Shown piece by piece: positions 25,942 through 55,767 of a DNA stretch of 64,000 nt. The stretch is taken from assembly GCA_902553145.1 (NCBI GenBank), contig CACDKD010000002.1, forward strand, positions 160,990-224,989, written 5' to 3'. The translations under genes were made by a program, and so were the position numbers. The notes under the pieces are model-generated. The model ran no database searches. It was not told where the DNA came from and worked only from the letters and a program-made list of their open reading frames with translations. Numbering within the stretch: the first letter of the stretch is position 1; each line of letters starts with the position of its first letter. Source of the stretch: an uncultured Gammaproteobacteria bacterium. Its GTDB lineage: Bacteria; Pseudomonadota; Gammaproteobacteria; Steroidobacterales; UBA11654.

Positions 25942-26018
25942 TGGTGCCCCGAAGAGGATTCGAACCTCTGACCTTCGGATTAGGAATCCGACGCTCTATC
26001 CTGCTGAGCTACCGGGGC
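25942..26018 (-). tRNA. tRNA-Arg (anticodon CCT)
   Basis: Reverse complement: GCCCCGGTAGCTCAGCAGGATAGAGCGTCGGATTCCTAATCCGAAGGTCAGAGGTTCGAATCCTCTTCGGGGCACCA. It folds as a cloverleaf with a 7-bp acceptor stem, anticodon stem TCGGA/TCCGA, loop TTCCTAA, T-loop TTCGAAT and an encoded CCA. Confidence 0.93.
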
Positions 26019-37658: not shown

Positions 37659-37748
37659 TGGCGGAGAGGGAGGGATTCGAACCCCCGGACGGTTTAACCC
37701 GTCAACGGTTTTCAAGACCGCCGCATTCGACCGCTCTGCCACCTCTCC
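37659..37748 (-). tRNA. tRNA-Ser (anticodon TGA)
   Basis: Reverse complement: GGAGAGGTGGCAGAGCGGTCGAATGCGGCGGTCTTGAAAACCGTTGACGGGTTAAACCGTCCGGGGGTTCGAATCCCTCCCTCTCCGCCA. 90 nt with a long variable arm, anticodon loop CTTGAAA and an encoded CCA. Confidence 0.93.
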
Positions 37749-39862: not shown

Positions 39863-40483
39863 TTATTGTGCCGTTGTGGGATTAATGATTGGAATCCAAT
39901 CTATGACTTCTGCCACATTGCTTGTCTGGGTTTGTGCGCCCATTTCATTCTCAAATAAGAGGTTTCTATTGAGGTTGTATTTTCTCGCAATGACTGTATA
40001 AACAGTTGTCGAGGCAAAAAGAGCTTTGCCTTCGTAGGCACCCTCCTTGATGATATTGGTGCCAGGTTCTACCTCTAGGGGATCTTTGAGAAATGCCGAA
40101 GTTAAATCTCCAGTGGATTTGTATCTCATGCATTTTCTTTTATTGATTTTATTTTGAGTGTTCAAAGTACAAACCGAATCATCTCTGATGATCTCTCTGG
40201 TTTCTGAATCATTGGAAAGAATGACAAAAAATGGGAAATCATTTTCCAATGACAGTTCTGCAGATCTCAAGAGGGAATAATCGACCACCTTTTGTGCTTC
40301 AGCGTCGGACTTGTTGATCCACTGAGAACCTTCATAGACAACCCTGTAGTGATTTGCTCCTCCGTCAATAAGCTCTTCCTTGAAACCGTCGATGATGCTC
40401 TGGTTGAGATTGCCAGTGGAAGTACAAGCTAGAATCATTGAAGTTGATGCAATGCTTAGTATATTTCTTATGCGATATTTCAT
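39863..40483 (-). CDS. hypothetical lipoprotein
   Basis: 206 aa. The signal ends in the lipobox MILAC. No recognisable domain. Confidence 0.55.
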   Translation of the reverse strand: MKYRIRNILSIASTSMILACTSTGNLNQSIIDGFKEELIDGGANHYRVVYEGSQWINKSDAEAQKVVDYSLLRSAELSLENDFPFFVILSNDSETREIIRDDSVCTLNTQNKINKRKCMRYKSTGDLTSAFLKDPLEVEPGTNIIKEGAYEGKALFASTTVYTVIARKYNLNRNLLFENEMGAQTQTSNVAEVIDWIPIINPTTAQ

Positions 40484-40484
40484 T

Positions 40485-41291
40485 TTAGGTTTCTTTTTTC
40501 TCGTATCTTCCAGGCGCGAGTGTATTTTCCAATAAGCGAATAAACCAATATGGAGTCGCCTTCAACAGAAATACCAAAATTTTATAGGTTTTTGTTGGAA
40601 CGCATATAGATTTCCCCTTAAACATGGCATCCACTCCTTCTTTTGCGATTCTCTCCGCACTGAATTTCATAAATGAAGGGACATCATCCATCATCTTTTG
40701 AACATTGCTGGCTGTGTGAAAATTTGTCACAGTAAAGCCGGGGCAAACAGAGGTAGACGTGATCCCAATATGGTTGTAACTGGAGTTCATTGCATCACTG
40801 AATCTGTTCATGAAGCTTTTGATTGGACCATAAAGAACCTGAATCGCAGAAGGAGGTGCAAATGCTGCAACGGAAGAAACGATCATGATTTTACCGTTGC
40901 GCTTCTCGACCATGTCTCTGACAAATAGTTTAGTGAGACTGATCACAGACGTTGCTAAAACCCGTATGAATTTCTCTTCATCTTCCAAAGAGGTCACATG
41001 AAATGGCGTGGCTATACCATACCCCGCATTGTTTATAAGAATCTCAATGTTGTATCCCCTTTCTTTTGTGGTTTGGTAAATATGTCTTACAGACTCTTTA
41101 TTGGCCAAGTCACTGGAAATATAATCGGATGTAATTCCAAATTCTTCTGATAACCGCTTGCAGCAATCCTGAAGATTTTGTTCATTTCTAGAAACCAAAA
41201 CTATGTTATATCCTCTGTTCGCAAGATCTTTTGCAATTTCGAAACCGATGCCAGATGAACCGCCCGTGATTAGTGCAAATGAATTACTCAT
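40485..41291 (-). CDS. short-chain dehydrogenase/reductase (SDR)
   Basis: 268 aa. ALITGGSSGIGFEIA, NNAGYG, YGPIK. Hydrophobic C-terminal helix, like the SDR at 32333..33136. Confidence 0.85.
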   Translation of the reverse strand: MSNSFALITGGSSGIGFEIAKDLANRGYNIVLVSRNEQNLQDCCKRLSEEFGITSDYISSDLANKESVRHIYQTTKERGYNIEILINNAGYGIATPFHVTSLEDEEKFIRVLATSVISLTKLFVRDMVEKRNGKIMIVSSVAAFAPPSAIQVLYGPIKSFMNRFSDAMNSSYNHIGITSTSVCPGFTVTNFHTASNVQKMMDDVPSFMKFSAERIAKEGVDAMFKGKSICVPTKTYKILVFLLKATPYWFIRLLENTLAPGRYEKKET

Positions 41292-41330
41292 AATTTAACA
41301 ACCCTTTTTCTTTATTTTGCTCGTATTAAG

Positions 41331-41960
41331 TCATGGAATCAACCAGGATGCTTGATGCTCCCCGGTCGTCCAATTGTGAATGGCTCTTCGGTGACCGCTC
41401 TTTTTTAGGTACAAGAATTCCATCGATTCAAACTGGAATACGAGCACGCAAAAATTTTGAAATCCATCATTAGACTCAAGATCAAATGTAGAAGGGTCAT
41501 ATTCAGAGGGATCTTCAATTTTTGTGCCTGGAGGACCGCCGACAAAATAACACTCTTTTGACATTTCTTGAGATAATGCCCAGGAACCTTTTGTCACCTC
41601 GTCCTTATGATGAAGGTTTATCTTTCCATCAAACCTTATTTGGATCTTTAAACTTGGATCATAACCATGAACCGATGCATGAGAGTCTTTCCTAATTTGC
41701 TCTAGCTTTATTGACCTGAAATCAGTATGAAATCTGATCAACCTTTTTTCTGGATCAAATTCTCTTAAAACCATTGTACGAGTTGAAACCCTTTTGCCAT
41801 CGAAGGTTGATAACGTTGGAGTATGGAAAAGAGTGTGCCTATTTTTTGATGCAATCTCCAAAATATGAAATGCAGAGTCCAACGTTTGATCAAGCTCTAT
41901 ATATTCCTCGGGTAAGGATAAGAGCCCTGTGGATTTTTCATTCAGTTTCTTTTGGATCAT
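41331..41960 (-). CDS. pyridoxamine 5'-phosphate oxidase-like FMN-binding protein
   Basis: Split-barrel pattern: G.VSTRTMVLREFD...L.FHTD.RS.K..QI. The C-terminal LEF......HRR resembles the PdxH IEFWQG..RLHDR. Likely start is M8 at 41960 (the track gives 41981). Confidence 0.55.
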   Translation of the reverse strand: MIQKKLNEKSTGLLSLPEEYIELDQTLDSAFHILEIASKNRHTLFHTPTLSTFDGKRVSTRTMVLREFDPEKRLIRFHTDFRSIKLEQIRKDSHASVHGYDPSLKIQIRFDGKINLHHKDEVTKGSWALSQEMSKECYFVGGPPGTKIEDPSEYDPSTFDLESNDGFQNFCVLVFQFESMEFLYLKKSGHRRAIHNWTTGEHQASWLIP

Positions 41961-42010
41961 TATCAAAAATTTTAAGTACAATACTCTGATTATATTTGAT
42001 TTAAATTACT

Positions 42011-43585
42011 ATGAGTGAAAATGATTACCCAAAGGTCGGTGGAAGATCAGCAAAAATAGCGCTGGTTCTTCTTGTCATTGTTTACATATTTAATTTTGTA
42101 GACAGGCAAATACTTTCGGTCCTTGCAGAAGAAATTAAGGCTGATCTGAATATCACTGACAGTGATTTGGGTTTTCTTTTTGGCACCGCATTTGCAGTTT
42201 TTTATTCAATTTTTGGAATTCCGCTTGGAAAATTGGCGGACACTTGGTCTAGAAAAAATTTACTAAGCATCGGTCTGGCACTTTGGAGCTTAATGACTGC
42301 ATTATCAGGTACGGCAAAATCATTGACTGCATTATCCGTTTATCGAATTGGTGTGGGGATTGGTGAATCGACAGCCAGTCCTTCCTCCTATTCAATCCTT
42401 TCGGATTATTTTTCACCTAAAGTCCGATCAACCATTCTATCGATCTATTCGAGTGGCGTTTATCTTGGTGCAGGAATTGGTCTTTTTCTTGGTGGCTGGA
42501 TTGTTGAACTCTGGACAGAAGCATACCCAGATCCTAGTCTCGCTCCTCTGTCCCTCAAGGGATGGCAAGCTGCATTTGTACTGGTTGGATTACCAGGTGT
42601 TTTGCTTGCATTCTTTACATGGCAAATAAAAGAGCCCAAAAGAGGTGGAAGCGAAGGAATCGAATCAATCATAACCACTGATCCATTGACTGCATTAAAA
42701 GATGAATTCATTGGTATCTCACCTTTTGTTATCTTTTCAGCAGATAATCGACTCAGAGCCACCGTGATCAATTTACTCATGGCATCACTCATCAGCTCAT
42801 TGTGTTTCACACTCTATAAACTCACAGGGGATCTGATTCAATGGCTCGCATTCGGTTTGGGCGCATATATTTTGAGTTGCTGGATTCAGGGACTCAAATT
42901 CAGGGATCCAGTGACCTTTGCTCTATTATTTAAAACAAAATCACTCATTTTTACAGTCGTCGGATTTCCATTCATATCATTCGTAACCTATTCAATTGCA
43001 GCATTTGGGCCAGCTTTTTACATGCGGAATTTTGGAATTACCGAGGGTGAAGTTGCAACAATTCTCGGACTAATTACTGCTGTTTTCGGAACATTGGGCG
43101 TGGTTATTGGAGGATATATTGGGGATCGATTAAGAGAGAAGCATGTCAATGGAAGGCTTTATGTAGGTTTTGGGTTAATCGTACTTGCTGTGCCAATGGC
43201 AATGGGAATGTTATTCACAGAGAGTCTTTTAATGTCCTATGTTTACTACTCACTCTTCCAGATTGCCACACCGATGTGGGTTGGAATTGCGCCGACAACT
43301 GTTTCTGATTTAGTGCTTCCAAGAATGAGAGGAGTTGCAGGCGCCTACTACATTCTAATGGTCAGTATGCTGGGGCTTGCACTTGGTCCTTATACCATTG
43401 GATATATCAGTGACTACTTCTTTTCTCTTGGATATTCCGATGCCATTTCACTCAAGTATGCATTGGCTTGGGGTCAGTCTGCACTTTTGATAACTGTGAT
43501 TGCTCTTATAGGTGCTTGTTATTATCTGCCGAAAGAAGAGCCAACAAAATTGGACAGAGCAAGAAAGCTGGGTGAATCTGTCTAA
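42011..43585 (+). CDS. MFS transporter
   Basis: 524 aa with about 12 or more TM segments. MFS motif A-like GKLADTWSRKNLL, and FVDRQILSVLAEEIK typical of spinster-like MFS proteins. Confidence 0.8.
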   Translation: MSENDYPKVGGRSAKIALVLLVIVYIFNFVDRQILSVLAEEIKADLNITDSDLGFLFGTAFAVFYSIFGIPLGKLADTWSRKNLLSIGLALWSLMTALSGTAKSLTALSVYRIGVGIGESTASPSSYSILSDYFSPKVRSTILSIYSSGVYLGAGIGLFLGGWIVELWTEAYPDPSLAPLSLKGWQAAFVLVGLPGVLLAFFTWQIKEPKRGGSEGIESIITTDPLTALKDEFIGISPFVIFSADNRLRATVINLLMASLISSLCFTLYKLTGDLIQWLAFGLGAYILSCWIQGLKFRDPVTFALLFKTKSLIFTVVGFPFISFVTYSIAAFGPAFYMRNFGITEGEVATILGLITAVFGTLGVVIGGYIGDRLREKHVNGRLYVGFGLIVLAVPMAMGMLFTESLLMSYVYYSLFQIATPMWVGIAPTTVSDLVLPRMRGVAGAYYILMVSMLGLALGPYTIGYISDYFFSLGYSDAISLKYALAWGQSALLITVIALIGACYYLPKEEPTKLDRARKLGESV

Positions 43586-43588
43586 TAC

Positions 43589-44398
43589 CTAATTTGGGTC
43601 GTAAATGGCCCAAATCTTTACTACTCCCTGAGGCACTATGAAATCTCCTTTCCATCCTGTTGGAACTATGATGCCCTCTCCGGGATTGATTTCAGAAGAA
43701 TTGCCAGCTTCGTCAATCATCAGTATCTGGCCTGAAATCACATACATGAATTCATCATAGGTCCAATCCGATGGAATATTGGCTTTACTGGATTCCCAAA
43801 ATCCTAAAGAAAAAGATTCATCCGCATTATTGAATGTCTGCTCTTCTTTTGTTCTAAGACCATTTTTCCCTTCATCGAATTTTTTCATGGCCATAGAATT
43901 CATGATGAAATCGGAACGATAATTAAGTCTAGCATCACCGTAGATGTCTCTGTCTGGATCATTCATTGTTGCAACCAATCCATCATAAAAATAAATGGCT
44001 TCAAGATCTTTTGTGATTTCAAATGTTCCCATCCAACCTTTTGGAATCAATAGGCCCTCACCTGATACAAATTTATTGGATTCTCCTGAAGTTGTTTTTG
44101 TCACTATTTCACCGGACTTGAGTAAAAAGAAAACATTGTATGGATAAGGCGTATCAATCTCTTCTGAACCCGCTTTTGATTTCCAAAGACCAATGCTGAA
44201 GTTTTCGTCCTGACTCATAAAAAGCTCAATATCGGCAGAATCCCAAAGCCCATAACCTGAATCATATTCTGAAAATGGCATTGACTTAAGCCTTTCAATC
44301 GAAGAGTCATTTATCAGTTCTGCTCCATTAATATTGATGGATGCAAAAAAGGTTGATGCTATTAAATATTGAATTACTCTTTTCATTCTTTTTCTCAT
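43589..44398 (-). CDS. exported bicupin protein (two cupin_3/DUF861-like domains)
   Basis: Signal peptide followed by two homologous halves: GLWKSKAGSEEI...FFLLKSGEI...GEGLLIPKGWMGTFEI and GFWESSKANIPS...MYVISGQI...GEGIIVPTGWKGDFIV. Confidence 0.65.
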   Translation of the reverse strand: MRKRMKRVIQYLIASTFFASININGAELINDSSIERLKSMPFSEYDSGYGLWDSADIELFMSQDENFSIGLWKSKAGSEEIDTPYPYNVFFLLKSGEIVTKTTSGESNKFVSGEGLLIPKGWMGTFEITKDLEAIYFYDGLVATMNDPDRDIYGDARLNYRSDFIMNSMAMKKFDEGKNGLRTKEEQTFNNADESFSLGFWESSKANIPSDWTYDEFMYVISGQILMIDEAGNSSEINPGEGIIVPTGWKGDFIVPQGVVKIWAIYDPN

Positions 44399-44874
44399 TT
44401 ATTTATTTTTAATCTGATATCAAAGCCATCGATTGGATATCTAGTGTGCTGTTCATAAACCGATTTAACCCTATCCAGAAGTGTCTCAGGCATATTGGAT
44501 GCTTTTCTAGACTTCATATCGACATGGACAACGAGTGTCTCAGAAATGGCCGATAGTTTTCTATCTTTATTCATCAAGACACCAACTATGTGAATTAGCT
44601 TTTTATTAAAATCATGAATCCTAAACATTGATATTACATCTTCCCCTTCCAAGAATTCATACATGTATCTCAGACTGTCTTCAATTGCAAAGCAAGAATA
44701 TCCCATTTGCAAATAATCCTCATCGAACCCAATTTCTTCGAAAAGGTTTCTTGAGTTCTCATCAAAAGCTTGCAGGTAATAAGCCACATTCATATGACCG
44801 TTTTGATCACACATGTCATTCGAAACAGAAAATGTTGGGGCTACGTATGGAAGGATATTCTCAAAATCAGTCAT
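44395..44874 (-). CDS. acyl-CoA thioesterase, 4HBT/hotdog fold
   Basis: 159 aa. DMCDQNGHMNVAYYLQAFDE motif. Paralogue of 37901..38317. Confidence 0.7.
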   Translation of the reverse strand: MTDFENILPYVAPTFSVSNDMCDQNGHMNVAYYLQAFDENSRNLFEEIGFDEDYLQMGYSCFAIEDSLRYMYEFLEGEDVISMFRIHDFNKKLIHIVGVLMNKDRKLSAISETLVVHVDMKSRKASNMPETLLDRVKSVYEQHTRYPIDGFDIRLKINK

Positions 44875-44883
44875 TAAAAAATC

Positions 44884-45339
44884 CTAAGTTCTATTTTTTA
44901 CATACATGTTAATCTTTGCCCTAAAGACAATTTGATCATTGAGGTCTTTAATTTCTACTGGAACAACTATGGTGCCTTCCTGATTCCAATCAATTTCAGA
45001 TCCGTCTGAAACGGCAATTAAGTTTGTTTCTGCTTTTTTTAGATATTCCACAGTCATCCCTGATGGAATCCATTGTTTGTCTCTTGGCAATGATGCTTCT
45101 ATCATCAATCCTCCAGACAACTCTGCCATGTTGCACATGGCTATTGCATGAACGGTTTTAATGTGATTCGTAACAGACCTTCTCTTCTTGAGTCGGACCT
45201 CACATCTGTTTTTCTTTAATTCAGTAATTTGCGACCGAATGGAGAAAAAATATGGGGCATTCATGCAGACCATGAATGTAAATATTCTTTTGCCAAATGG
45301 AATTCCTTCTAACTTTTCGAATAAATCTAAAACTTTCAT
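44884..45339 (-). CDS. hotdog-fold protein (DUF4442/PaaI-like thioesterase)
   Basis: The pattern N....VHAIA..N.AEL..G, followed by GM.VEYLKKA, is typical of DUF4442. I prefer M17 at 45339 (MKVLDLFEKL). The track start 45387 would overlap the divergent gene. Confidence 0.55.
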   Translation of the reverse strand: MKVLDLFEKLEGIPFGKRIFTFMVCMNAPYFFSIRSQITELKKNRCEVRLKKRRSVTNHIKTVHAIAMCNMAELSGGLMIEASLPRDKQWIPSGMTVEYLKKAETNLIAVSDGSEIDWNQEGTIVVPVEIKDLNDQIVFRAKINMYVKNRT

Positions 45340-45375
45340 CTTGTCATTGCTCCTTAAGAACGTGATTATAGTGGG

Positions 45376-46221
45376 ATGAGTAATCAATCTAAGTTACTTC
45401 TTTTGGCATCTATTATAGGCACATTTCTAGCCATCTATTCAATCATGGAAACCAATAAAAATTTCTCCTCGCTTCCTGACAATATTATTGCAACTGTCAA
45501 TGACAAAATCATACCCAGTGATAAATATCAAACCATCATTAATTTGATTCAAAATGACAAACGTGATGAATTGACAAAAGCTGATCGGGAAATGGCATTA
45601 GATCGAATTATAGAAGAGGAGCTTTTGGTTCAATATGCCTACAAGAATGGGTTCCTGGAAGCAGATGATCTTTTGAGAAAAAGCATTGTCAGATCAGTGG
45701 TTGATTCAATAGTAGAGCAAGCATTATCGGTAGTACCAACAGAACAAGATCTGCTGAAATTCTATGAAGTCAATCGACAAACCTTTGCAATCGATGAAAA
45801 GTATCGAGTTGTGATACTCTCTTCCCAGAATCGATCAGATATCGATGAGGGCAAAGTAATTTGGCAAAGTAACTATGATTTAACGTTATTGAGGCAAACA
45901 TTTAAAAGCATTGACCGATTGGATATTCCTACTGGATTTATTTCAAAAATCAGATTAGGAACCTTGATTGGCCCTTTGCTCAGGGACAAAGTTTTGTCTC
46001 TGCAAGTGGGTGAGACAAGTCAAACATTAAAGACGATCTATGGATACTCAATCGTTACATTGGTTGACAAGAAGGATCGAGTTATCCCAGAGTTCAAAGA
46101 AATTAGCGAAATTGTATTGCAGGAATATAAAAGACAACAACGAGAGGAGATACTTGAAGAATTATTGAAAGATTTAAAAAGGCAATCTGACATTAAAATC
46201 AATGAGGGTTTCACAAATTAA
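45376..46221 (+). CDS. membrane-anchored SurA-N/parvulin-like peptidyl-prolyl isomerase family protein (degenerate)
   Basis: 281 aa. N-terminal TM, a helical chaperone-like region, and a C-terminal LQVGETSQTLKTIYGYSIVTLVD resembling the parvulin G..S.P..T..G.HII motif without the His. Confidence 0.45.
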   Translation: MSNQSKLLLLASIIGTFLAIYSIMETNKNFSSLPDNIIATVNDKIIPSDKYQTIINLIQNDKRDELTKADREMALDRIIEEELLVQYAYKNGFLEADDLLRKSIVRSVVDSIVEQALSVVPTEQDLLKFYEVNRQTFAIDEKYRVVILSSQNRSDIDEGKVIWQSNYDLTLLRQTFKSIDRLDIPTGFISKIRLGTLIGPLLRDKVLSLQVGETSQTLKTIYGYSIVTLVDKKDRVIPEFKEISEIVLQEYKRQQREEILEELLKDLKRQSDIKINEGFTN

Positions 46222-46227
46222 TCATCG

Positions 46228-47430
46228 ATGAGTATTTTTAGGGCAATATTCATAGCATCATTGATTTTCTTATCTTTTCAGGATCTTTCGTTCGCTCATA
46301 CAAAAAGTGTGTCTTACTCGACTTGGATAATCCAAGAAGATCAGGCGATTCTTGATTTCACAGTCTCATCTAGAGAAGTAACAAAATTGAAGGAATATCA
46401 ATTAAATTATCCAGATTTAGAGAAAAGCATAACGAATCATTTAGTCAAAAATATTACATCGGAGCAGATTCTTCCTAGTCCCTCTGTGAATATTCTCAAT
46501 ACAGAAATCGGCACAACAGGCATTTCTCTTAAATTTGATATCAACCAGGCCGATGATTTTACTATCGATATGAATGTATTTTTTGATCAAATTCCAGGTC
46601 ATATTCACTATGCAAAAATTAATCAAAAAGACTATAAAAAGACTATAGCACTCAATCAAAATAGTCATGAAATAGTTATCTTGAATAATGAGAGCGAAAC
46701 GATAAAACCAGTGCCTTTTGATTCATTCAAACAGCATGTTGGTCTTGGCTTTGCCCACATTCTTGAAGGGATTGATCATTTACTTTTTTTACTCGCTTTA
46801 CTTATTTTATGCAACTCGCTCAAAAGTCTTATTTTTGCTGCGACAGGCTTTACCATTGGCCACAGTTTAACCTTGGCACTTGCAGCCTCTAATGTAGTCA
46901 TTCCTCAAGTCAATATAATTGAATCCTTGATTGGATGGACAATTGTCCTGGCAAGCATTGAATCTTTAAATCTTCCAAACAATGAACTCAAAAAAATACA
47001 GTGGGTTATTTCAGCCATAGCAATCATGTCATTCATTTTCATTGTTTTTAATATGATTGATCTCAGTGGTGGTTTTATTTTTGGGCTTGGCCTTTTGTCA
47101 CTGGCAATACTGAAATTGAATGAAGACGTCGAGCAAGCTAATAAGTTGAGACCAATGCTGGCAATTATTTTTGGAACCATCCATGGATTTGGATTTGCAA
47201 ATATTCTCAATGAAATCAGTTTGGATAGAGCAAATTTTTTAGTTTCACTTGTGGGATTCAATATCGGTGTTGAAATCGGTCAGATACTCGTTCTTTTGAT
47301 CATGTGGTTCATTGTGTCCTTTCTCATGAGAAGAATACTGGCTGAACACATGCAAAAGATAACCGAGATAGTCTCTTCATTCTTATGTTCAATTGGTCTA
47401 TATTGGTTTCTGATGCGTTTATTTGGATAG
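46228..47430 (+). CDS. HupE/UreJ family metal (Ni/Co-type) transporter with an extra N-terminal periplasmic domain
   Basis: 400 aa. The signal ends LSFA|H, so the mature N-terminal residue is His. After about 170 aa comes GLGFAHILEGIDHLLFLLALL (HupE/UreJ signature) and about 6 TM segments. Confidence 0.7.
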   Translation: MSIFRAIFIASLIFLSFQDLSFAHTKSVSYSTWIIQEDQAILDFTVSSREVTKLKEYQLNYPDLEKSITNHLVKNITSEQILPSPSVNILNTEIGTTGISLKFDINQADDFTIDMNVFFDQIPGHIHYAKINQKDYKKTIALNQNSHEIVILNNESETIKPVPFDSFKQHVGLGFAHILEGIDHLLFLLALLILCNSLKSLIFAATGFTIGHSLTLALAASNVVIPQVNIIESLIGWTIVLASIESLNLPNNELKKIQWVISAIAIMSFIFIVFNMIDLSGGFIFGLGLLSLAILKLNEDVEQANKLRPMLAIIFGTIHGFGFANILNEISLDRANFLVSLVGFNIGVEIGQILVLLIMWFIVSFLMRRILAEHMQKITEIVSSFLCSIGLYWFLMRLFG

Positions 47431-47450
47431 AATACTTTAAAGGGGGAACA

Positions 47451-49754
47451 ATGACTAAAAGTGTAAAATATTTGCTTCTGATATTGGTTTTGGCTTTGAT
47501 TGGAATATCAGCTTTTATTCTCACGACGTCGCCTCATAGCTATAAAAAATTTACAACAGACTATTACGATACCAATCCACTAACCAATCAAGATCCAACA
47601 GACATCAAAAGACCGATTGATTTGATTGATGACGATTCAAAACAAATACTCTGGGGAGATACGCATGTTCACACGACTTATTCGATGGATGCGTTTTACA
47701 TCTCTTTACCTCTTATGCATGGATCAAGAGGTGCATTCCCGCCTGCGTTTGCTTGCGATTATGCCAGGTTTATTTCACAAATCGATTTTTACGTATTGAC
47801 GGATCATGCTGAATCGTACACGCCAAGAACATGGAATGATCAAGTCGAAAGCATCAGACAATGCAATGCAATTTCTGGCGAAGAAAATCCGGACTTGGTG
47901 GCATTCATAGGATGGGAATGGACACAAGCCGGAAATACACCCGATGATCATTATGGTCACCACAACGTATTCTTCAAAGATTACAAGGAAGGACAAATCC
48001 CTGACCGACCAATTGCTGCGGGCGGGGCTCTTGCATTGGTTCTCAGGCTTCAACTGGCCGATGTGAATCGTAACTTGTATCTCTTTGATCCTGTAAACAG
48101 TGATTATTATTTTTCATTTGCAGACTACCTCGACATGTTGCTTGAAACAGAATCGTGTCCAGAGGGATTGCCATCGAATTATTTGCCCAAAGATTGCTAT
48201 GAAACGGCTCAAACACCTGCGGATCTGTACAGCAAACTCGATGACTGGGGGTTTGAGACCGAGGTGATTCCTCATGGAACAACATGGGGTTTTTATACGC
48301 CACAAGCTGGGGATTGGAAAGAATACATGCGAGATGAGGACAACATTAGACCCGATTACAACAGTGTAATTGAAATCTACTCGGGTCATGGAAACTCAGA
48401 AGAATATTTTGATTTCAAAGTCGTCGATTTCGATGAAAACGGAGAGATGATTTGTCCAGAGCCTACAAAGGACTATCTGCCGACATGCTATCAAGCAGCG
48501 GTGATTAATAAGAACAGATGCTTAGAAGAAGGAAATTCTATAGAAGTTTGCGAGGAATTGGCCGAACAAACAAAAAAACAAGTGAATGACTTTCCAGGCG
48601 CTACAGGAGCGAGAGTCCTATTTGGTGTTGATGACAATGCATGGCTGGATGCTGGACAAGCCAGAGGAGCCTATCTTCCCGCATTTAATTACCGACCTAA
48701 GAAATCAGTTCAATACGGTCTAGCTTTAAGGAATGAAGAATTCGAAGACGGCAAAGAACGATTCAAATGGGGATTTATAGGATCCAGTGATACCCATACT
48801 TCAAGAGCAGGACATGGATTCAAACAATTGCTTCGAGTCGGTGGAACCGAAGCAAGAGGTGCTGTCAGCGAGAGATGGAGACACTTGCTCAATGACGTGA
48901 CAACTGAAAAAACAAAATCCGGGCTGAGAACAATAGAAGAACTGAATGAATTGACCGGTGCCTCTCCCATTGATGTGGAAAGAGCTGCAAGCTTCTGGTC
49001 GCTTGGTGGTCTCATGGCTGTGCATTCCTCTGGAAGAGATCGTGATTCAATCTGGCAAGCGATGAAACGAAAAGAAGTATATGCAACAACCGGGCATCGA
49101 ATCTTACTGCATTTTGATTTAGTGGATGAAGACTCAATCAAACCCATGGGAAGCATCATTGAAACTTCTTCAAATCCAATATTTCGTGTGAAAGCAATGG
49201 GCTCATTCATACAACTCCCTGGATGTCCAGACTATGTTCATGAGGCGCTTTCAGAAAAGAGGCTTCAAAAAATTGCCAATGGTGAGTGCTATCATCCTTC
49301 GGATGAGCGACATCGATTAGAGCGAATAGAGGTCATAAAAATCACACCGCAAAACAGCAAAGATGAAGACCCATCAACATTAATTTTTGATGCATGGAAA
49401 TCATTTGACTGTGGCCCGGAACAAATACAGTGCGAGGTTGAATTCACTGATGAAGATTTTTCAGCCAGCCAAAGAGACGTTGTTTATTATGTAAGGGTCA
49501 TTGAAGAGGACACGCTGCTGGTCAATGGAGGCAATATGAGAACTCAGTTTGATGCCGATGGTCATCCAATCTCTATTAACCCATGCAATGCCGATTATAG
49601 GGAAGATTATGAAGAAGAATGTTTAGGGCCCGGTGGTCATCGAGCTTGGTCTTCTCCAATATTTGTCGATTACAAAGAGCAAGTTATTAATGCTAACATT
49701 GAGAGTGATATTCAGGCCACAATAGAAATAAATGAGCAATCTGCAATTAACTAA
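47451..49754 (+). CDS. DUF3604 domain protein (PHP-like metal-dependent hydrolase fold), exported or membrane-anchored
   Basis: The ATG at 47451 is preceded by AAGGGGG. N-terminal anchor MTKSVKYLLLILVLALIGISAF. ILWGDTHVHTTYSMDAF is the DUF3604/PHP His motif. Many Cys residues are present. The track ORF start 47385 overlaps hupE. Confidence 0.7.
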   Translation: MTKSVKYLLLILVLALIGISAFILTTSPHSYKKFTTDYYDTNPLTNQDPTDIKRPIDLIDDDSKQILWGDTHVHTTYSMDAFYISLPLMHGSRGAFPPAFACDYARFISQIDFYVLTDHAESYTPRTWNDQVESIRQCNAISGEENPDLVAFIGWEWTQAGNTPDDHYGHHNVFFKDYKEGQIPDRPIAAGGALALVLRLQLADVNRNLYLFDPVNSDYYFSFADYLDMLLETESCPEGLPSNYLPKDCYETAQTPADLYSKLDDWGFETEVIPHGTTWGFYTPQAGDWKEYMRDEDNIRPDYNSVIEIYSGHGNSEEYFDFKVVDFDENGEMICPEPTKDYLPTCYQAAVINKNRCLEEGNSIEVCEELAEQTKKQVNDFPGATGARVLFGVDDNAWLDAGQARGAYLPAFNYRPKKSVQYGLALRNEEFEDGKERFKWGFIGSSDTHTSRAGHGFKQLLRVGGTEARGAVSERWRHLLNDVTTEKTKSGLRTIEELNELTGASPIDVERAASFWSLGGLMAVHSSGRDRDSIWQAMKRKEVYATTGHRILLHFDLVDEDSIKPMGSIIETSSNPIFRVKAMGSFIQLPGCPDYVHEALSEKRLQKIANGECYHPSDERHRLERIEVIKITPQNSKDEDPSTLIFDAWKSFDCGPEQIQCEVEFTDEDFSASQRDVVYYVRVIEEDTLLVNGGNMRTQFDADGHPISINPCNADYREDYEEECLGPGGHRAWSSPIFVDYKEQVINANIESDIQATIEINEQSAIN

Positions 49755-51255
49755 ACGTGATTTTTTAAAGTATGGCACCAGCTTAATAACCGCTGCTGCC
49801 CTCCCTTATACTTATCAAGTGGCTCTTGCAAAAGAGCAATGGGACACAATCATCATCGGAGCTGGAACCGCTGGAATACCGGCAGCGATATTTGCTGCAG
49901 AAAGAGGTCTGAAGGTGCTGGTGATTGAGAAGGCATCTGTGATTGGAGGTACGCTTTTTGTCTCAACCGGTCAAATAAGCGGGGCCGGCACAGTCTTTCA
50001 AGAAAGAAAGGGCATAAAAGATTCTCCCGATCAACATTTCGATGACATCATGAGAATTAACAACAATACTTCTGATCCAACACTCACAAGAATACTGACC
50101 GATCATGCCGGTCCGACAATTAATTGGCTGGCAGCCAATGGCTACACAATTTTTGATAATCATCCAGTTAAAAAGATGGCTCACGATGCATTCTCAGTGG
50201 CCAGATATCAACAAGGGCCAAAAGGGGCGACATCACCTTGGGGTGGCGGCCTCGCAATTCTCAATGCAATGAAACCTTTGTTTGATAAAGAAGTCAGTAA
50301 AGGTTCAATTACCATTCTCCTAGAAACGAGTGCGGTTGATCTAATCCAAGAAAGAAATGGCGAGATCAATGGAGTTATTGCACAAAATAAGGAAGGTAAA
50401 AGCATTGAGTATAAAGGTCGCAGTGTCATTCTTGCATCGGGTGGATGTGCGTCAAACCCAAGAATGTATGAAGAGCTTCATGGAATTCCGCTTTATTGTC
50501 AAATGGCCTATCCTCAAAGCCAGGGTGCTGGCCTGATTCTTGGGCAAGCCGTTGGTGGATATTTGAGAGGCGGAGAAAAATACTCACCCCTCTACGGCAT
50601 GATCTTGTCAGATGATAAAGTGCCATCGACTCCTTACGGTGTTGCCATCAATGCGATGGAGCGACAACCTTGGGAAATTGTGGTCAATTCAGATGGCAAA
50701 AGATTTGTTCAAGAAGATCATGAAAGTGTCGATCATATTGAACACCAAATTGGGAAGCAGTCCGCTCATCGCCATTGGACAATAATGGACCAAAGGATGC
50801 TGAATGAAATGCCGCCCATGATCTACGATTGGTCCAATGAGAGAATTGCAAAAGAAGCCGACAATCATGTCATGTTTAAAAGTGGATCTAGTATTAGAGA
50901 ATTGGCCATCAAAACAGGACTTCATCCGGTGAATCTTGAAAACACAGTAAATGACTTTAATAACAACATCAAAAACAATCAATCAGATTCATTTGGGAGA
51001 TTGCATCGACCATTGGCCATTGAGCAAGGACCGTACTATTCCGTTCGAATGAGTGGCTGGTCCCTGTGTTCATTTGCAGGTTTAGGTGTCAACGAAAATT
51101 TTGAAGTTATCAGACCCTCTGGCGAACCCATTAAAAACCTTTATGCCATAGGCGAAGTCATTGGATTTGGAGCGACCTCAGGAAATGCTTATGTCAATGG
51201 AATGGGCGTCACGCCGGCACTCACATATGGAAGGCTTCTCGGTCAGAGAATCTAA
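49732..51255 (+). CDS. FAD-dependent oxidoreductase (FAD_binding_2, fumarate reductase/KstD-like) with a Tat-like signal peptide
   Basis: 507 aa. N-terminus MSNLQLTKRDFLKYGTSLITAAALPYTYQVALA. Dinucleotide fold IIIGAGTAGIPAAIFAAERGLKVLVIEK. C-terminal NLYAIGEV motif. Confidence 0.8.
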   Translation: MSNLQLTKRDFLKYGTSLITAAALPYTYQVALAKEQWDTIIIGAGTAGIPAAIFAAERGLKVLVIEKASVIGGTLFVSTGQISGAGTVFQERKGIKDSPDQHFDDIMRINNNTSDPTLTRILTDHAGPTINWLAANGYTIFDNHPVKKMAHDAFSVARYQQGPKGATSPWGGGLAILNAMKPLFDKEVSKGSITILLETSAVDLIQERNGEINGVIAQNKEGKSIEYKGRSVILASGGCASNPRMYEELHGIPLYCQMAYPQSQGAGLILGQAVGGYLRGGEKYSPLYGMILSDDKVPSTPYGVAINAMERQPWEIVVNSDGKRFVQEDHESVDHIEHQIGKQSAHRHWTIMDQRMLNEMPPMIYDWSNERIAKEADNHVMFKSGSSIRELAIKTGLHPVNLENTVNDFNNNIKNNQSDSFGRLHRPLAIEQGPYYSVRMSGWSLCSFAGLGVNENFEVIRPSGEPIKNLYAIGEVIGFGATSGNAYVNGMGVTPALTYGRLLGQRI

Positions 51256-51752
51256 GCTTTTTCAGCCGAACTGATAAAATATTCTTTCGTAGCCCAAGCA
51301 CTATAGAATAGAAGTGAAAAGAACACGGTGCTCATCATAAGCCGTAAATCAAAAGGAATGGCTAAAAGATAGGTTTGCGCAAGGGAGCTTCCATCATGTC
51401 CATTTAGATATACACCAAAATTAACCACAATGTGCCAAATCAAAACACTGCCGACAGAGTACTTCATTAAAGACAGCAGTGACCCCGTTGACTGATATCT
51501 GGAAATCAAAGCGATGAATATCAAAGTGGCGTATACAAAAAACATTGTTTGACCATAGAACCCTAAGAAAATATCAGTGATTAAAAGAACGCTTACGGGC
51601 ATTAAAATCTGAATTGATTTATTTCTAGTCACATATGGCATAAAGAGCGCCAAAGCCAAAACAGGAGTCCAATTGGCCGGTAATAAAAATCTTGCGGCAA
51701 TAACACATGCCAAAACAAATATAAGAGGTTTAAGTACCTGATAATTTTTCAT
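51252..51752 (-). CDS. polytopic membrane protein, unknown function (possibly DUF6580-like)
   Basis: 166 aa with about 5 TM segments. The N-terminus NWTPVLALALF resembles the NFSP.GA.ALF motif of DUF6580. This is a weak call. Confidence 0.45.
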   Translation of the reverse strand: MKNYQVLKPLIFVLACVIAARFLLPANWTPVLALALFMPYVTRNKSIQILMPVSVLLITDIFLGFYGQTMFFVYATLIFIALISRYQSTGSLLSLMKYSVGSVLIWHIVVNFGVYLNGHDGSSLAQTYLLAIPFDLRLMMSTVFFSLLFYSAWATKEYFISSAEKA

Positions 51753-51813
51753 AAATATGTTCCTGTCTAGGTAGATGAAATTATAACAAAGCCTTTAAAA
51801 AATGGTTCATATT

Positions 51814-52317
51814 TTATTCCGAATAGACCAATTTAAAATGCTCAACAATGATGGGCATGTCATCAGTGCATGCACGACCATATGGTTCTAGAACATTGTT
51901 CCAATAGTCTCTATGAAGAGGGATCCATATTTCAGGGTCTCTGACTGGCGGTCCATCGATTTTTGTAACTTCATAATCTACTTCACCAAACGTTGTCTTC
52001 TCAATTTTTGTAATTTGAACCACAATCTCGGGCTTTCCGTCGTATGAGAGAAGTATTATGGGTTGTCCGGTTTGGCTATCAGGTATATTTTCACTCTCCA
52101 TTAACCATGGCAATGAGAAGGTACCTACCTTTTCTCCCTCTTTGATGAAATCAATGATTAGGCCAGTTGTTTCTTCATCGATACCAATGGAACGCATCTG
52201 GTGATCAACTGCGAGCTCAGGTTTTGATTCGATAACTCGATTCCAATAATCATCAATTGGTTTTGTATCAGGATTCTTTAGTGCTCCTCCTCCGAGGATG
52301 GCATTGATTCTTTTCAT
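51814..52317 (-). CDS. ASCH domain protein
   Basis: 167 aa. The pattern GIDEETTGLIIDFIKEGEKVGTFSL ... VQITKIEKTTFGEVDYE ... YW resembles ASCH/YqfB-like proteins. Confidence 0.55.
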   Translation of the reverse strand: MKRINAILGGGALKNPDTKPIDDYWNRVIESKPELAVDHQMRSIGIDEETTGLIIDFIKEGEKVGTFSLPWLMESENIPDSQTGQPIILLSYDGKPEIVVQITKIEKTTFGEVDYEVTKIDGPPVRDPEIWIPLHRDYWNNVLEPYGRACTDDMPIIVEHFKLVYSE

Positions 52318-52400
52318 AATTTTTAAAATGAATTTCTATTGCATGTTAGAATTTTTACATATTGAGAGAAACCAATTCAACGATAATTTACCTTTAACGT

Positions 52401-54695
52401 ATGAAATTTAGATTAGCAATTGGAAGTTTATTGATACTGATGACGATGTCATCAAATATCAATGCACAAATTGATGCCAATCAGGCCATATCCGAATTGT
52501 CAATTCTGCAAGAGTCTCTGAATCAATCCGAGATCAATGAGCGAACAATAAAGGATACCAGAGAGAAAGCAGTTGAAATCAGAACAGATGCACTGATTTG
52601 CGTTGATCAAATTGAACCGCAAGTGGAAACTCTCAAACTTGAAGTTGAAGCACTTGAACAAATCAGTCCAGATGTCGATATACAGATTTATGAAAGGCTA
52701 TCAGAAGCAAGAAGTCGACTGACAGCTGAAGATGCCAAATTAAAAAACTGCTCTTTAACGGTTGTTCGCTCAACAAGAATCATTGATCTATCAAATAGAT
52801 TGCTCAATGAGATAACGACTGAGCTTCTCAGCGAGAAAAATGAGGATATTTTTGATGCCATCGCTACTTTGCCTGCTCAGCTGAAACAACTTCCAGATCT
52901 AATCTTTAATGACAAAGCCATTCAGAGAATCACAAATGAAACCCTTTTTCTCCTTATTTTGTTTTTAATTCTTGGTTTTAGTTTTGGTTATTTCTTTGGG
53001 GATCAAATCAAAAAAATTCAGTACTCAGATCCATTCAAATCAATCGATCGTTCAATCATCTTAAAGTTAAGAGCTTTATTTAAACCGTTTGGAAGAGTGC
53101 AATCCCCTATCCTCTTTGGTTCGCTTGGAATATCAGGAGCCATTGCTCTATCATTATCGATATCGCCCTCTGATTCATGGATCATTCGCTTGGGGCTAAG
53201 TCCCTTTTTAGCTGCAGTCCTCTACCTTCTAATCAATTGGATTACAGGACCCTTCTCACCAGCAAACATAGATGAGAACTCCATTTCAGATGCGGCTAGG
53301 AATTTAAAACAGAAACTCAACTTTTTTACACTCATTGTGGTTATTACTTATATTATTTTTGGCCCCGATTGGCTCTCAAGTGAGCTGGCAAATGACCAGT
53401 CGCTTATTCGAATCGCGCTCGTCTCATTAATGATCTTTGCTTTGATACCTGTGATGAATAGTTCAACAAGCTTGTTTATGGAAGAAGGTCAGTATGGAGT
53501 CATTAGGTTTATAGGATATTCTGCTTTAGCACTTAGTTTCATTTCTGAGTTGTCTGGTTTTCACAATCTTTCTAGTTTTATATTAAATGGTTTCATTTTG
53601 ACCCTTTTCTCAACATACCTGCTCTGGTCCCTTTTGGCGATGACAGAAAATTCTGTTGCCTGGATCAATGAGTCAACAAATCTTATAGGAATCAGAATCA
53701 GATCTGCATTGGATCTAACGAGAGATTCGGGTAAATCTAAATTGGCAATCTATCAACTCTTTTTTGATGCTTCCTTCTGGATAATATATCTGTCTGTCTT
53801 GATAAGGGTTTGGGACCCAACAGGGACTCTTGTGGAAACACTCTCATCGTACGCAACTGATGGCATTCCAATGGGTGATATCCGAGTTATTCCGACAAAT
53901 ATACTAGCTGGAATTATTGCATTTGCAGTGCTCACCGGCATTACGGGTTGGGTGAAAAGATGGATTGATAAAAGATGGTTGAGACAAATCACACCTGATA
54001 GAGGCGCGAGGGATGCACTTGTGACTGTGGTTGGCTATACCGGATTTACGATCTCGTTGTTGGTTGGCCTATCCATCAGTGGCGTAAACATCACAGGCAT
54101 CGCAGTTGTTGCCGGTGCCTTGTCAGTTGGTATTGGTTTTGGCTTGCAAGCAATTGCCAATAATTTTGTTTCTGGAATTATTCTTCTTTTTGAAAGGCCA
54201 ATTAAATCAGGTGACTTTGTAACCGTTGGCGATGTTGAAGGCTTTGTTAGAAAAATAAGCATCAGAGCTACAGAAATCGAAACTCTTGATAATCAGGATA
54301 TGCTTATCCCTAACTCTGAACTTGTTTCAGGAAGAGTCACAAATTGGGTACTTCATAACCCATATGGAAGACTGATCGTAAAAATTGGTGTGGCTTATGG
54401 GAGTGAAATTGAAAAAGTATCAAAAATTTTAGAAGAAACAGCAAATGAACACGATCAGGTTATCAGCGATGGAAGGGCATCGCCTCCAAAAGCCTTATTT
54501 ATGGGTTTTGGCGACAGTTCGCTTGATTTCGAATTAAGAGTAAGAATAGTAGATATCAAGAAACGATATGACGTATTAAGTGACCTTAATTTTGCCATTA
54601 ATCAGAAATTTGCTTCAGAAGGTATTGTCATTCCATTTCCTCAAAGAGATCTTCATATTAAAGATTGGTCAGAGGACAGTAAGAAGAAGAAATAA
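52401..54695 (+). CDS. mechanosensitive ion channel, MscK/MscM-like (MscS family)
   Basis: 764 aa. Signal peptide, periplasmic coiled-coil, multiple TM segments, then the MscS core GALSVGIGFGLQAIANNFVSGIILLFERPIKSGDFV.VGD.EG.V..I.IRAT. Confidence 0.88.
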   Translation: MKFRLAIGSLLILMTMSSNINAQIDANQAISELSILQESLNQSEINERTIKDTREKAVEIRTDALICVDQIEPQVETLKLEVEALEQISPDVDIQIYERLSEARSRLTAEDAKLKNCSLTVVRSTRIIDLSNRLLNEITTELLSEKNEDIFDAIATLPAQLKQLPDLIFNDKAIQRITNETLFLLILFLILGFSFGYFFGDQIKKIQYSDPFKSIDRSIILKLRALFKPFGRVQSPILFGSLGISGAIALSLSISPSDSWIIRLGLSPFLAAVLYLLINWITGPFSPANIDENSISDAARNLKQKLNFFTLIVVITYIIFGPDWLSSELANDQSLIRIALVSLMIFALIPVMNSSTSLFMEEGQYGVIRFIGYSALALSFISELSGFHNLSSFILNGFILTLFSTYLLWSLLAMTENSVAWINESTNLIGIRIRSALDLTRDSGKSKLAIYQLFFDASFWIIYLSVLIRVWDPTGTLVETLSSYATDGIPMGDIRVIPTNILAGIIAFAVLTGITGWVKRWIDKRWLRQITPDRGARDALVTVVGYTGFTISLLVGLSISGVNITGIAVVAGALSVGIGFGLQAIANNFVSGIILLFERPIKSGDFVTVGDVEGFVRKISIRATEIETLDNQDMLIPNSELVSGRVTNWVLHNPYGRLIVKIGVAYGSEIEKVSKILEETANEHDQVISDGRASPPKALFMGFGDSSLDFELRVRIVDIKKRYDVLSDLNFAINQKFASEGIVIPFPQRDLHIKDWSEDSKKKK

Positions 54696-54717
54696 AACGC
54701 TTTTATAAGACATAAAT

Positions 54718-55767
54718 ATGAGTATTCGAGACACATACTTGTCTAATGAAGATATTGAGCCTGATCAAAATCAAACCAATATCGTTAATCGCTTTGAAGA
54801 ATTGCAAAAAGAGATTATTGGTGAAAAAAAAATCTCAGGAATGATTCTCTCTTTATTTCAAAATGACCAACACAGGTCAAATGGCATCTATTTATGGGGC
54901 GATGTTGGCAGAGGAAAAACATTTTTGATGGATCTTTTCTTTGAAAGTCTGTCCATCAAAGAAAAGGATAGAAAACATTTTCATCGATTAATGGAAGAAA
55001 TACACAATGGAATCGATGAATTCAAAGATCATCCTGACCCAATTAATGAAGTAGCAAACTCAATCGCCAGTAAAAAAGAAGTGCTATGCATTGATGAATT
55101 TTACGTAGAGGATATTGCCGATGCGACAATTATGGCAAGACTGATCAAATCACTCTTAAATCAAAGAATAAGGCTGATAATTACTTCCAATTGCAAGCCA
55201 GACGATTTATACAAAAACGGTCTACAAAGAGATCTTTTCATTCCAGCCATAAAACAAATCAAGCAAAGCCTTGAGATTACACATATTGGTGATGGTAGGG
55301 ACTATAGACACTTTATTAAAGGGAAAGGCATTGATCGTATCTCAATACACAGTGAAAATAGCATGGTGAGTCTTGCAAGACACCTCGGATGTGACATCGA
55401 TGATATTAAAAATAAGAAATCCATCTTAGTTGTGAGGGGCAGAGAGATCGAATGCATTGCAAAAAACGATCGATTGGCTTGGTTTGATTTTGATGCAATA
55501 TGTGGGCATAAGAGAAGCGTGAAAGACTACATTGATATTGCCGATGAATTTAAGACTGTCGTGATAACAAATGTGCCCTTATTCAATGAGGAATGCGAGA
55601 ACGAAGCAAGAAGATTCATTGCCCTGATTGATGAATTATACGATCAAAATATTGATCTTTATATGACGGCATCAAGACAGTGTGAAGATCTTTATCATGG
55701 AAAAAAACTGAAAGATGAATTTAGAAGAACGACGAGTCGCTTGGTGAAAATGAGCAGAAACGATTAG
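54718..55767 (+). CDS. zapE: cell division protein ZapE (AFG1-like ATPase)
   Basis: 349 aa. YLWGDVGRGKTFLMDLFF (Walker A), VLCIDEF.V.DI.DA (Walker B), and TSN..PD.LY. Confidence 0.88.
   Translation: MSIRDTYLSNEDIEPDQNQTNIVNRFEELQKEIIGEKKISGMILSLFQNDQHRSNGIYLWGDVGRGKTFLMDLFFESLSIKEKDRKHFHRLMEEIHNGIDEFKDHPDPINEVANSIASKKEVLCIDEFYVEDIADATIMARLIKSLLNQRIRLIITSNCKPDDLYKNGLQRDLFIPAIKQIKQSLEITHIGDGRDYRHFIKGKGIDRISIHSENSMVSLARHLGCDIDDIKNKKSILVVRGREIECIAKNDRLAWFDFDAICGHKRSVKDYIDIADEFKTVVITNVPLFNEECENEARRFIALIDELYDQNIDLYMTASRQCEDLYHGKKLKDEFRRTTSRLVKMSRND

Follow-up and report, generated by a model that had tools for sequence, protein, structure and literature searches.

In the CopC-CopD and YcnJ systems of copper uptake, a periplasmic metal domain with an N-terminal histidine is coupled or fused to a permease of the inner membrane. 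Here, we describe a permease of the same logic and the genes that accompany it in a 64-kb stretch of DNA from an uncultured gammaproteobacterium; this whole stretch is called the window, and positions are given within it. Four co-directional open reading frames (ORFs) extend across positions 45376-51255 of the + strand, and they encode a parvulin/SurA-like chaperone (PPI), a permease of the HupE_UreJ_2 family (HupE2), a DUF3604 protein and a flavoprotein. The permease differs from CopC-CopD and YcnJ in that its folds and families are unrelated to theirs and the copper-specific signature is absent.

The architecture of this permease has been described under the name anglerase (Franco Cairo et al., Nat Commun 2025; PMC12537917; PDB 9GCE). 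According to that report, the isolated Ang-1 domain RbAng-1a binds Cu (74 nM) and Ni (220 nM) via its first histidine, His1, which coordinates Cu in the crystal structure, and the Ang domain is proposed to 'fish' metal ions and feed them to the permease. Classical HupE/UreJ proteins (PF04955; Brito et al. 2010; PMC2667541) form a secondary-transporter-like helical bundle, have a signal peptide followed by a histidine, and carry H-x5-D-H in the first channel helix; those that have been characterised bring metal into the cytoplasm (PMC2667541). The permease in the window resembles them in each of these structural respects, and by analogy also in that its gene adjoins that of a putative metal-dependent enzyme. 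Unlike them, it has an extra periplasmic domain of ~140 residues, and its partner enzyme would be periplasmic rather than a cytoplasmic Ni enzyme. ZrgA of V. cholerae and PA4063 of P. aeruginosa are periplasmic metal-binding accessories of uptake (PMC9820375, PMC8561739). As soluble proteins that stand on their own, they serve ABC transporters and are controlled by Zur.

For the DUF3604 protein, the nearest characterised relatives by sequence, although very distant ones, are CehA and McbA, the hydrolases of the carbamates carbaryl and carbofuran (NF038032). A predicted PHP-like domain holds their catalytic His residues. McbA is a demonstrated periplasmic protein with an N-terminal membrane segment and a signal peptide, and CehA has an N-terminal signal peptide (PMC8292978). 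By analogy, these enzymes set an example of a predicted PHP-like domain at work in the periplasm. The genes for CehA and McbA lie on mobile elements and their products act on xenobiotics, whereas the DUF3604 gene of the cluster is on the chromosome and occurs widely among marine plankton.

Linkage of the chaperone, permease and DUF3604 genes

The PPI, HupE2 and DUF3604 genes are linked more than chance would predict. We compared 52 genome loci that encode DUF3604 relatives (compared loci carry L-numbers), mapping the window's proteins onto them and clustering all ORFs. DUF3604 adjoins HupE2 and one or two PPI genes in at least 30 of the 52. The order PPI-HupE2-DUF3604 is found in the lineage of the window and in Porticoccaceae/SAR92, the Porticoccaceae loci having an additional short gene that encodes a SurA-N domain and nothing else. 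Halieaceae and Pseudomaricurvus have PPI-DUF3604-PPI'-HupE2-DUF3604, with three DUF3604 paralogues in one metagenome-assembled genome (MAG). Two Pelagibacteraceae (SAR11) genomes have HupE2-PPI divergent from DUF3604, and five loci (L053, L058, L070, L074, L075) have DUF3604-PPI-HupE2, an order that distant HupE2 subfamilies (L115, L120, L139) show again, there at weak profile scores. Adjacency that survives such rearrangement of the order speaks for functional coupling and against inherited synteny.

The association is tightest between the chaperone and the permease. PPI lies immediately 5' of HupE2 at L053-L058, loci that came from a look-up of distant HupE2 homologues (~30% identity). A metagenome scan was seeded with the HupE2 alignment, and the loci were analysed with our own profile hidden Markov models (HMMs); PPI was again immediately 5' in all 13 evaluable loci of the same HupE2 subfamily. 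The third partner is variable: where enough upstream DNA was present in the metagenomic loci, it was DUF3604 in two, a cytochrome c in three and neither in three, and more loci of each kind occurred on shorter contigs. Considering that the PPI pairing is nearly constant while the third partner varies, the tightest unit is PPI plus HupE2. Of the partners that recur beside this unit, DUF3604 is the commonest, and it does so in at least four gene orders. More distant HupE2 subfamilies mostly lack a PPI gene.

A preliminary description of this DNA, made from its letters and ORFs, had proposed a self-contained module of all four genes. The co-occurrence data bear this out for PPI, HupE2 and DUF3604, which are linked in distant lineages, but not for the flavoprotein gene, which is adjacent only in the window's lineage, where the whole neighbourhood is syntenic (see below). 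The parts come from known families, and the permease architecture was already published in 2025 (PMC12537917). The fixed pairing of chaperone and permease appears to be undescribed, as does the way in which it is repeatedly coupled to DUF3604 in abundant marine bacteria; in the accessible part of the tables of PMC12537917, Rotamase_2 is listed only 3 times and DUF3604 is not listed, whereas here a PPI gene is almost always 5' of the permease gene and DUF3604 is often nearby.

The features of the cluster in the window are as follows.

45376..46221, + strand: PPI, predicted membrane-anchored periplasmic SurA-N/parvulin-like (PpiD/PrsA-like) chaperone, 281 amino acids
46228..47430, + strand: anglerase-type HupE/UreJ-2 permease, 400 amino acids
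46297..46299, + strand: codon of permease His24, candidate mono-histidine-brace metal ligand
47441..47447, + strand: AGGGGGA, Shine-Dalgarno-like, 5' of the DUF3604 start codon (direct sequence reading)
47451..49754, + strand: DUF3604 protein, predicted to be exported, Cys-rich, with PHP-type metal-ligand motifs, 767 amino acids
49732..51255, + strand: FAD_binding_2 flavoprotein with a predicted twin-arginine translocation (Tat) signal, 507 amino acids

The first and second genes are 6 nucleotides (nt) apart and the second and third 20 nt, whereas the third and fourth overlap by 23 nt. This layout and the domain content had been given in the preliminary description and agree with the ORF list and the Pfam matches; its view that the products are exported or membrane-anchored also holds as a prediction, for all four, from their N-termini. 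A promoter/terminator scan found no terminator-like site between the four genes, and promoter-like sites were no more numerous than in shuffled sequence. The DUF3604 ORF is open from 47385, and its second ATG, at 47451, yields the protein of 767 amino acids; the AGGGGGA element and the N-termini of orthologues support this ATG as the start.

Metal-ligand patterns in the permease and the DUF3604 protein

The permease matches PF13795 (HupE_UreJ_2) with 132.7 bits (cut-off 24.5), and the classical HupE_UreJ family PF04955 with 19.8 bits, below the cut-off of 23. Neither hydrogenase, urease nor B12/cobalt genes were found within positions 40000-57000 of the window. Identity as a classical Ni/Co HupE/UreJ protein was rejected on the score for PF04955 and the absence of a Ni or Co context. 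The earlier assignment to the HupE/UreJ type thus needs correction: the permease is of the HupE_UreJ_2 anglerase type, and the supply of Ni or Co to hydrogenase or urease is not simply transferable to it.

The protein begins with a signal peptide (residues 1-23, ...SFA/HTKS), followed by a beta-sandwich (~24-160) and a channel of 7-8 helices (~163-400). His24 is invariant in 46 aligned permease sequences and in all locus orthologues, and in every orthologue it directly follows an AxA-type signal peptidase site, the point of cleavage being placed by the AxA rule. The alignments show H24, S27, H125, H177-x5-D183-H184, H212, H319 and E349 to be invariant. H125 is a second invariant His within the periplasmic domain, and the remaining ligands fall in motifs of the channel helices (H177-x5-D183-H184, GFTxGH212S, FGxxH319GFGFA and GFNxGVE349xGQ). 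An AlphaFold2 (AF2) model, with a predicted local distance difference test score (pLDDT) of 84, has the N-terminal beta-sandwich and the 7-8 helices. Foldseek comparison of the N-terminal domain with the PDB gave ZrgA (8f1b, E 5.5e-6), PA4063 (7bgo, E 1e-4) and Ang-1 (9gce, E 3e-3), each with a probability of 1.0.

As judged from sequence and model, the permease has the anglerase architecture: a signal peptide, a first mature residue that is an invariant His, a periplasmic beta-sandwich, a flexible linker and a HupE/UreJ-2 (PF13795) channel. The spacing of the channel histidines, 7 and then 28 residues, is the same as in the predicted site of MmAng-2a (PMC12537917), so that His194/His201/His229 there correspond to H177/H184/H212 here. 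Differences are found in the N-terminal domain, which has no detectable sequence likeness to RbAng-1a and scores better against ZrgA and PA4063 than against 9gce. Its second conserved candidate ligand is H125, as against Asn41 in the crystallised Ang-1 domain. The domain may constitute a separate Ang subtype. ZrgA and PA4063 are its best structural matches, but identity to them is only 9-16%, and here the domain is fused to the channel rather than free-standing.

The PPI protein scores 29.1 bits with SurA_N_3 (cut-off 27.2) and 23.8 bits with Rotamase_2 (cut-off 27); its hydrophobic N-terminal anchor covers residues ~7-24, and its top PDB sequence match is PrsA (6vj6, E 2e-5). The partner PPI proteins at other loci carry unmarked Rotamase_2 matches. 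Many PpiD-type rotamase domains are inactive. On sequence grounds, the protein is a predicted inner-membrane-anchored periplasmic chaperone of the PpiD/PrsA type.

The DUF3604 protein matches PF12228 with 88.5 bits (cut-off 20.4), and the coverage of the model is only partial, which argues for a divergent, longer DUF3604 subfamily. The family is large, with thousands of homologues in a protein search, and hundreds of marine sequences fall within single clusters at 90% identity. The protein contains the motif WGDTHVHTTYSMDAF, whose HxH lies at residues 72-74 (nt 47664-47672). A 32-sequence alignment shows H72, H74, D80, D118-H119, E156, H170, H275, H313 and H525 to be invariant, and D447 and H449 to be kept at 90% or more. 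The residues thus include the ligand order H72/H74, D118-H119, E156, H170, H275, D447/H449, with H313 and H525 conserved in addition. This is the order of the PHP motif definition that we used (HxH, D-H, E, H, H, D-x-H), which reportedly goes back to Aravind and Koonin in 1998. The PHP-like motif pointed out in the preliminary description is therefore conserved, and so are many of the cysteines noted with it: 14 are invariant in the same alignment. Four of these (C335, C346, C357, C367) form a twin Cx10C/Cx9C arrangement (residues 335-367, window positions 48453-48551), which weakly matches CHCH-domain proteins of mitochondria. It is probably an insertion in the enzyme, a helical hairpin stapled by disulfides.

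A signal anchor or signal peptide is found at residues ~7-26, and every family member compared has a hydrophobic N-terminal segment, in some with a lipobox or a lipoprotein-type N-terminus. A cytoplasmic location, which would have spoken against the preliminary description, is thus not what the N-termini indicate; the protein is predicted to be exported. The 14 invariant cysteines, with the twin hairpin among them, point to an oxidising compartment. In the AF2 model (pLDDT 69, predicted template-modelling score 0.73), the conserved ligands are placed at the ends of predicted strands.

The only characterised family matched by DUF3604 members is CehA/McbA, which resembles the window protein in export, predicted for the latter, and in histidines that belong to a putative PHP-like domain. 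The match to NF038032 has 20.3 bits, against a cut-off of 80, and covers only the first PHP motifs (residues 69-175); weak matches of this kind occur in 11 of the 32 members, the best with an E of 2.7e-5.

As a separate observation, L035, a Pseudomonadales MAG with two closer DUF3604 paralogues, encodes a third and far more divergent DUF3604-like protein (FGDLHVHTSYSHDS...; L035:2642-4882, - strand) next to an arylsulfatase-like gene.

Readings of the cluster

The reading that we favor, with a probability of roughly one half, is that the region comprises a conserved three-gene envelope module and one local addition, and that it serves a metal-dependent DUF3604 hydrolase. The beta-sandwich of the permease would capture a scarce transition metal (Cu, Ni, Zn or another) in the periplasm, by means of an invariant N-terminal His on a ZrgA/Ang-1-like sandwich that is tethered above a channel with a ladder of His, Asp and Glu residues. 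The anchored PpiD/PrsA-like protein would chaperone its neighbors, and permease and chaperone together, at the membrane surface, may fold and metallate DUF3604, or at least manage the same metal pool. DUF3604 itself would be a multinuclear metallohydrolase dependent on both, with a ligand pattern like that of trinuclear PHP-fold hydrolases, and might cleave an ester-type bond (a phosphoester, carbamate or carboxyl ester) of a periplasmic substrate. The flavoprotein would be loaded with flavin adenine dinucleotide (FAD) in the cytoplasm and exported by the Tat pathway via a natural KR signal.

Many points weigh against this reading. No experiment links any of the four proteins. A dihaem CcoP-like cytochrome c takes the place of DUF3604 next to PPI-HupE2 at L054-L057, and such an alternative partner needs no free-metal loading; the pair occurs with no recurring partner at L065, L073 and L100; and DUF3604 occurs away from the pair in loci of SAR86, Myxococcota, Binatia and Thermodesulfobacteriota. 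Since the PPI-HupE2 pair is also found with the cytochrome or alone, metal import in the service of DUF3604, which the preliminary description had proposed, is just one possible reading of a linkage that is itself real. Moreover, import of metal into the cytoplasm by HupE is not a direct service to a periplasmic enzyme. Regulation offers no help: the best matches to Zur, Fur or NikR boxes 5' of the first cluster gene, in ~40 loci and the window, are no better than background, unlike the Zur control of ZrgA and PA4063, and an Rfam scan found no riboswitch, including the B12 and NiCo types, in the 64-kb window.

The assignments of fold are open to similar objections. A profile of the permease N-terminal domain from 46 sequences matched no PDB chain, 9gce included, at E <= 10, and thus showed no sequence-level likeness to Ang-1, ZrgA or PA4063. 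The PHP assignment of DUF3604 is weak, resting on motifs and weak scores. The Foldseek match of the model to the PHP-like phosphoesterase 3e38 has an E of 0.04 and a probability of 0.91 on a model of pLDDT 69; the Pfam PHP model matched none of the 32 members at E <= 1; PDB searches with the single sequence and the profile returned nothing meaningful, only the weak CHCH-like matches; and in the literature we found no function for DUF3604, which is only listed by name.

A bolder version of the favored reading is speculative and rather doubtful. PPI, the His1 anglerase-type HupE/UreJ-2 permease and DUF3604 would make up a widespread system, so far unrecognised, for the maturation or metallation of periplasmic PHP-fold hydrolases of a new class in dominant marine bacterioplankton (SAR11, SAR92, OM60/Halieaceae and the lineage of the window). 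At the periplasmic face, the enzyme would receive a scarce metal straight from the permease, and its substrate would be some abundant organic ester in dissolved form, such as an organophosphate. With either version, DUF3604, an unstudied and abundant family, gains a first testable context, in which it would be a periplasmic, metal-dependent hydrolase. The anglerase concept is extended to a subfamily in which the chaperone partner is fixed and the periplasmic clients recur. It is then a question whether the enzymes that HupE/UreJ-2 proteins serve are periplasmic instead of, or in addition to, cytoplasmic. Such hypotheses are testable, because two cultured carriers, SAR92 strain H921 (L052) and Pseudomaricurvus alkylphenolicus KCTC 32386 (L030), have the module.

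The place of the fourth gene depends on what its product is. The flavoprotein matches FAD_binding_2 (PF00890) with 174.3 bits, and its nearest NCBIfam family is TIGR01813 (flavocytochrome c), with 197.9 bits against a cut-off of 285.45. Its N-terminus reads MSNLQLTKRDFLKYGTSLITAAALPYTYQVALA/KE, and the predicted Tat signal covers residues ~1-33 (nt 49732-49830), with T-K-R-D-F-L-K, then GTSLITAAALP, then ALA/K. The pattern [ST]-K-R-[DE]-F-x-[KR] is kept in 10 of 10 orthologues. Distant homologues have at the same position either RR (for example P0242, P0253, P0334 and P0390; SRRGF, KRRF, SRRDF, TRRGFLK, SRREFLK) or KR (P0244-P0251; NKRE, SKRTF, TKRSF), and some lack the N-terminal extension altogether. 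The KR signal suspected in the preliminary description is credible for this reason, and natural KR variants of the Tat signal, such as that of TtrB, are known. The sequence therefore supports a Tat-exported flavoenzyme.

The closest solved relatives of the flavoprotein are two periplasmic flavoenzymes, Shewanella flavocytochrome c3 (Fcc3; E 1e-39) and the urocanate reductase UrdA (E 4e-33). Unlike these, the flavoprotein has no haem module, tetrahaem or otherwise, and no domain that binds flavin mononucleotide, and would be exported as a stand-alone protein. Residues H365, R402, H504 and R544/545 of Fcc3 align to Y, V, L and Y, respectively. Since all are replaced, fumarate is not the substrate, and identity as a fumarate or urocanate reductase was rejected on catalytic residues.

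Perhaps all four genes form one catabolic operon, in which the flavoprotein oxidises or reduces the periplasmic product of DUF3604. This alternative survives best, although it is unlikely. The 23-nt overlap of the DUF3604 and flavoprotein genes and the lack of a terminator-like site between the cluster's genes favor it, and both proteins are predicted to be exported. The flavoprotein gene is directly 3' of DUF3604 in 10 of 10 loci of the window's lineage, in which DUF3604 identity ranges from 68% to 95%. However, these are the only loci with that arrangement, and their synteny extends over all 16 kb; the adjacency therefore does not count as independent evidence. Flavoprotein homologues that share 54% and 49% identity have other, unrelated gene contexts away from DUF3604, and a four-gene operon conserved across taxa was rejected on these grounds. 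Other oxidoreductases are found beside DUF3604 elsewhere (SDR in Porticoccaceae, GMC in Halieaceae), but, lacking signal peptides, they are cytoplasmic. Unrelated genes are packed with overlaps in streamlined genomes, and the flavoprotein gene overlaps a DUF6580 gene by 4 nt in just this way (see below). The tie of the flavoprotein to PPI, HupE2 and DUF3604 is specific to the window's lineage, and is unproven despite the 23-nt overlap.

The same PPI-HupE2 pair is accompanied at some loci by a hydrolase and at others by a cytochrome c, two periplasmic partners that differ in their chemistry, and the cluster could instead be a device for metal acquisition. DUF3604 would hydrolyse an organic ligand of the metal or an ester that bears it, the dihaem cytochrome c would elsewhere reduce the metal, and the freed ion would pass to the His1 domain and be imported via HupE/UreJ-2, with the chaperone as an adaptor. 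The alternation fits interchangeable 'release' steps better than metallation of clients. In addition, TonB-dependent receptors lie directly up- or downstream in Porticoccaceae loci and at L056, and the direction of import is that of characterised HupE proteins (PMC2667541). Even so, we consider this explanation improbable, and place it behind the catabolic operon. The SAR11 loci have the triad with no adjoining TonB receptor; Halieaceae have 2-3 DUF3604 paralogues per permease, each with its own chaperone gene, which looks more like several clients; and the boxes for metal regulators were not found in the Zur/Fur/NikR scan. We know of no PHP-family enzyme that degrades a metallophore.

The least probable explanation, that chaperone and permease are not chiefly concerned with metal and are a membrane platform assembling anchored periplasmic proteins (DUF3604 or the dihaem cytochrome c), for example into a catabolic or redox complex, would account for the overlaps of 1-4 nt between PPI genes and both HupE2 and individual DUF3604 paralogues, for the N-terminal membrane anchors on both partner types, and for neighbors that in several lineages are lipid/alcohol oxidoreductases (SDR, GMC, acyl-CoA dehydrogenase, AMP-ligase) rather than metal genes, but it is made less likely by ligand conservation, since the invariant His1 and the His/Asp/Glu ladder of the channel are hallmarks of metal handling, an Ang domain of homologous architecture binds both Cu and Ni in vitro (PMC12537917), and the closest fold matches are zinc-trafficking proteins.

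Neighboring genes in the window and at the compared loci

Downstream of the cluster, a gene for a DUF6580 membrane protein (51252-51752, - strand) is convergent with the flavoprotein gene, and the overlap of their 3' ends by 4 nt shows tight packing of unrelated genes in a genome of ~38% GC. Upstream, an opposite-strand trio (43589-45387, - strand) encodes a double Cupin_3 protein with a signal-like N-terminus, a 4HBT_2 thioesterase and a DUF4442 (hotdog-fold) protein, and is syntenic with the cluster in every close relative and in loci labelled 'Woeseia'. The DUF4442 ORF (44884-45387, - strand) has a TTG start as listed, 12 nt inside the divergent PPI ORF, which starts at 45376 on the + strand; an internal ATG at 45339 would give a divergent intergenic region of 36 nt. 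The sole promoter-like hexamer pair 5' of PPI (45341-45369) is inside that region. The only Rfam or ARAGORN matches in the 64-kb window are tRNA-Arg(CCT) at 25942-26018 and tRNA-Ser(TGA) at 37659-37748, both on the - strand.

Among the compared loci, the dihaem (2x CxxCH) cytochrome c is encoded 5' of PPI-HupE2 at L054:5305-6126, L055:5452-6096 and L056:5394-6149, and that of L054, at least, has an N-terminal membrane anchor. The same variant is found at L064, L066, L067, L069, L071 and L080, and some of these lineages look GC-rich. Two or three DUF3604 paralogues accompany a single HupE2 at L011, L013, L024, L026 and L030-L032 (Halieaceae, Pseudomaricurvus), mostly each with its own PPI gene 5' and overlaps of 1-4 nt. 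Halieaceae also have a gene for a cytoplasmic GMC oxidoreductase upstream.

In Cellvibrionales (L014, L017, L021, L022, L024, L028, L048, L052), several genes adjoin DUF3604 on its 3' side, those for a cytoplasmic SDR, an NAD epimerase, a divergent AraC regulator, an FAD-linked oxidase, a GlpD-like dehydrogenase and an FGGY kinase, and TonB-dependent receptors are encoded upstream. Ammonium transporter (Amt) genes adjoin the cluster in SAR11 (L044/L045, two copies 3' of DUF3604), and in a gammaproteobacterial lineage (L006/L008) an Amt gene lies three genes upstream of it. The two SAR11 loci also have TauD-like and alkyl-sulfatase-like genes nearby.

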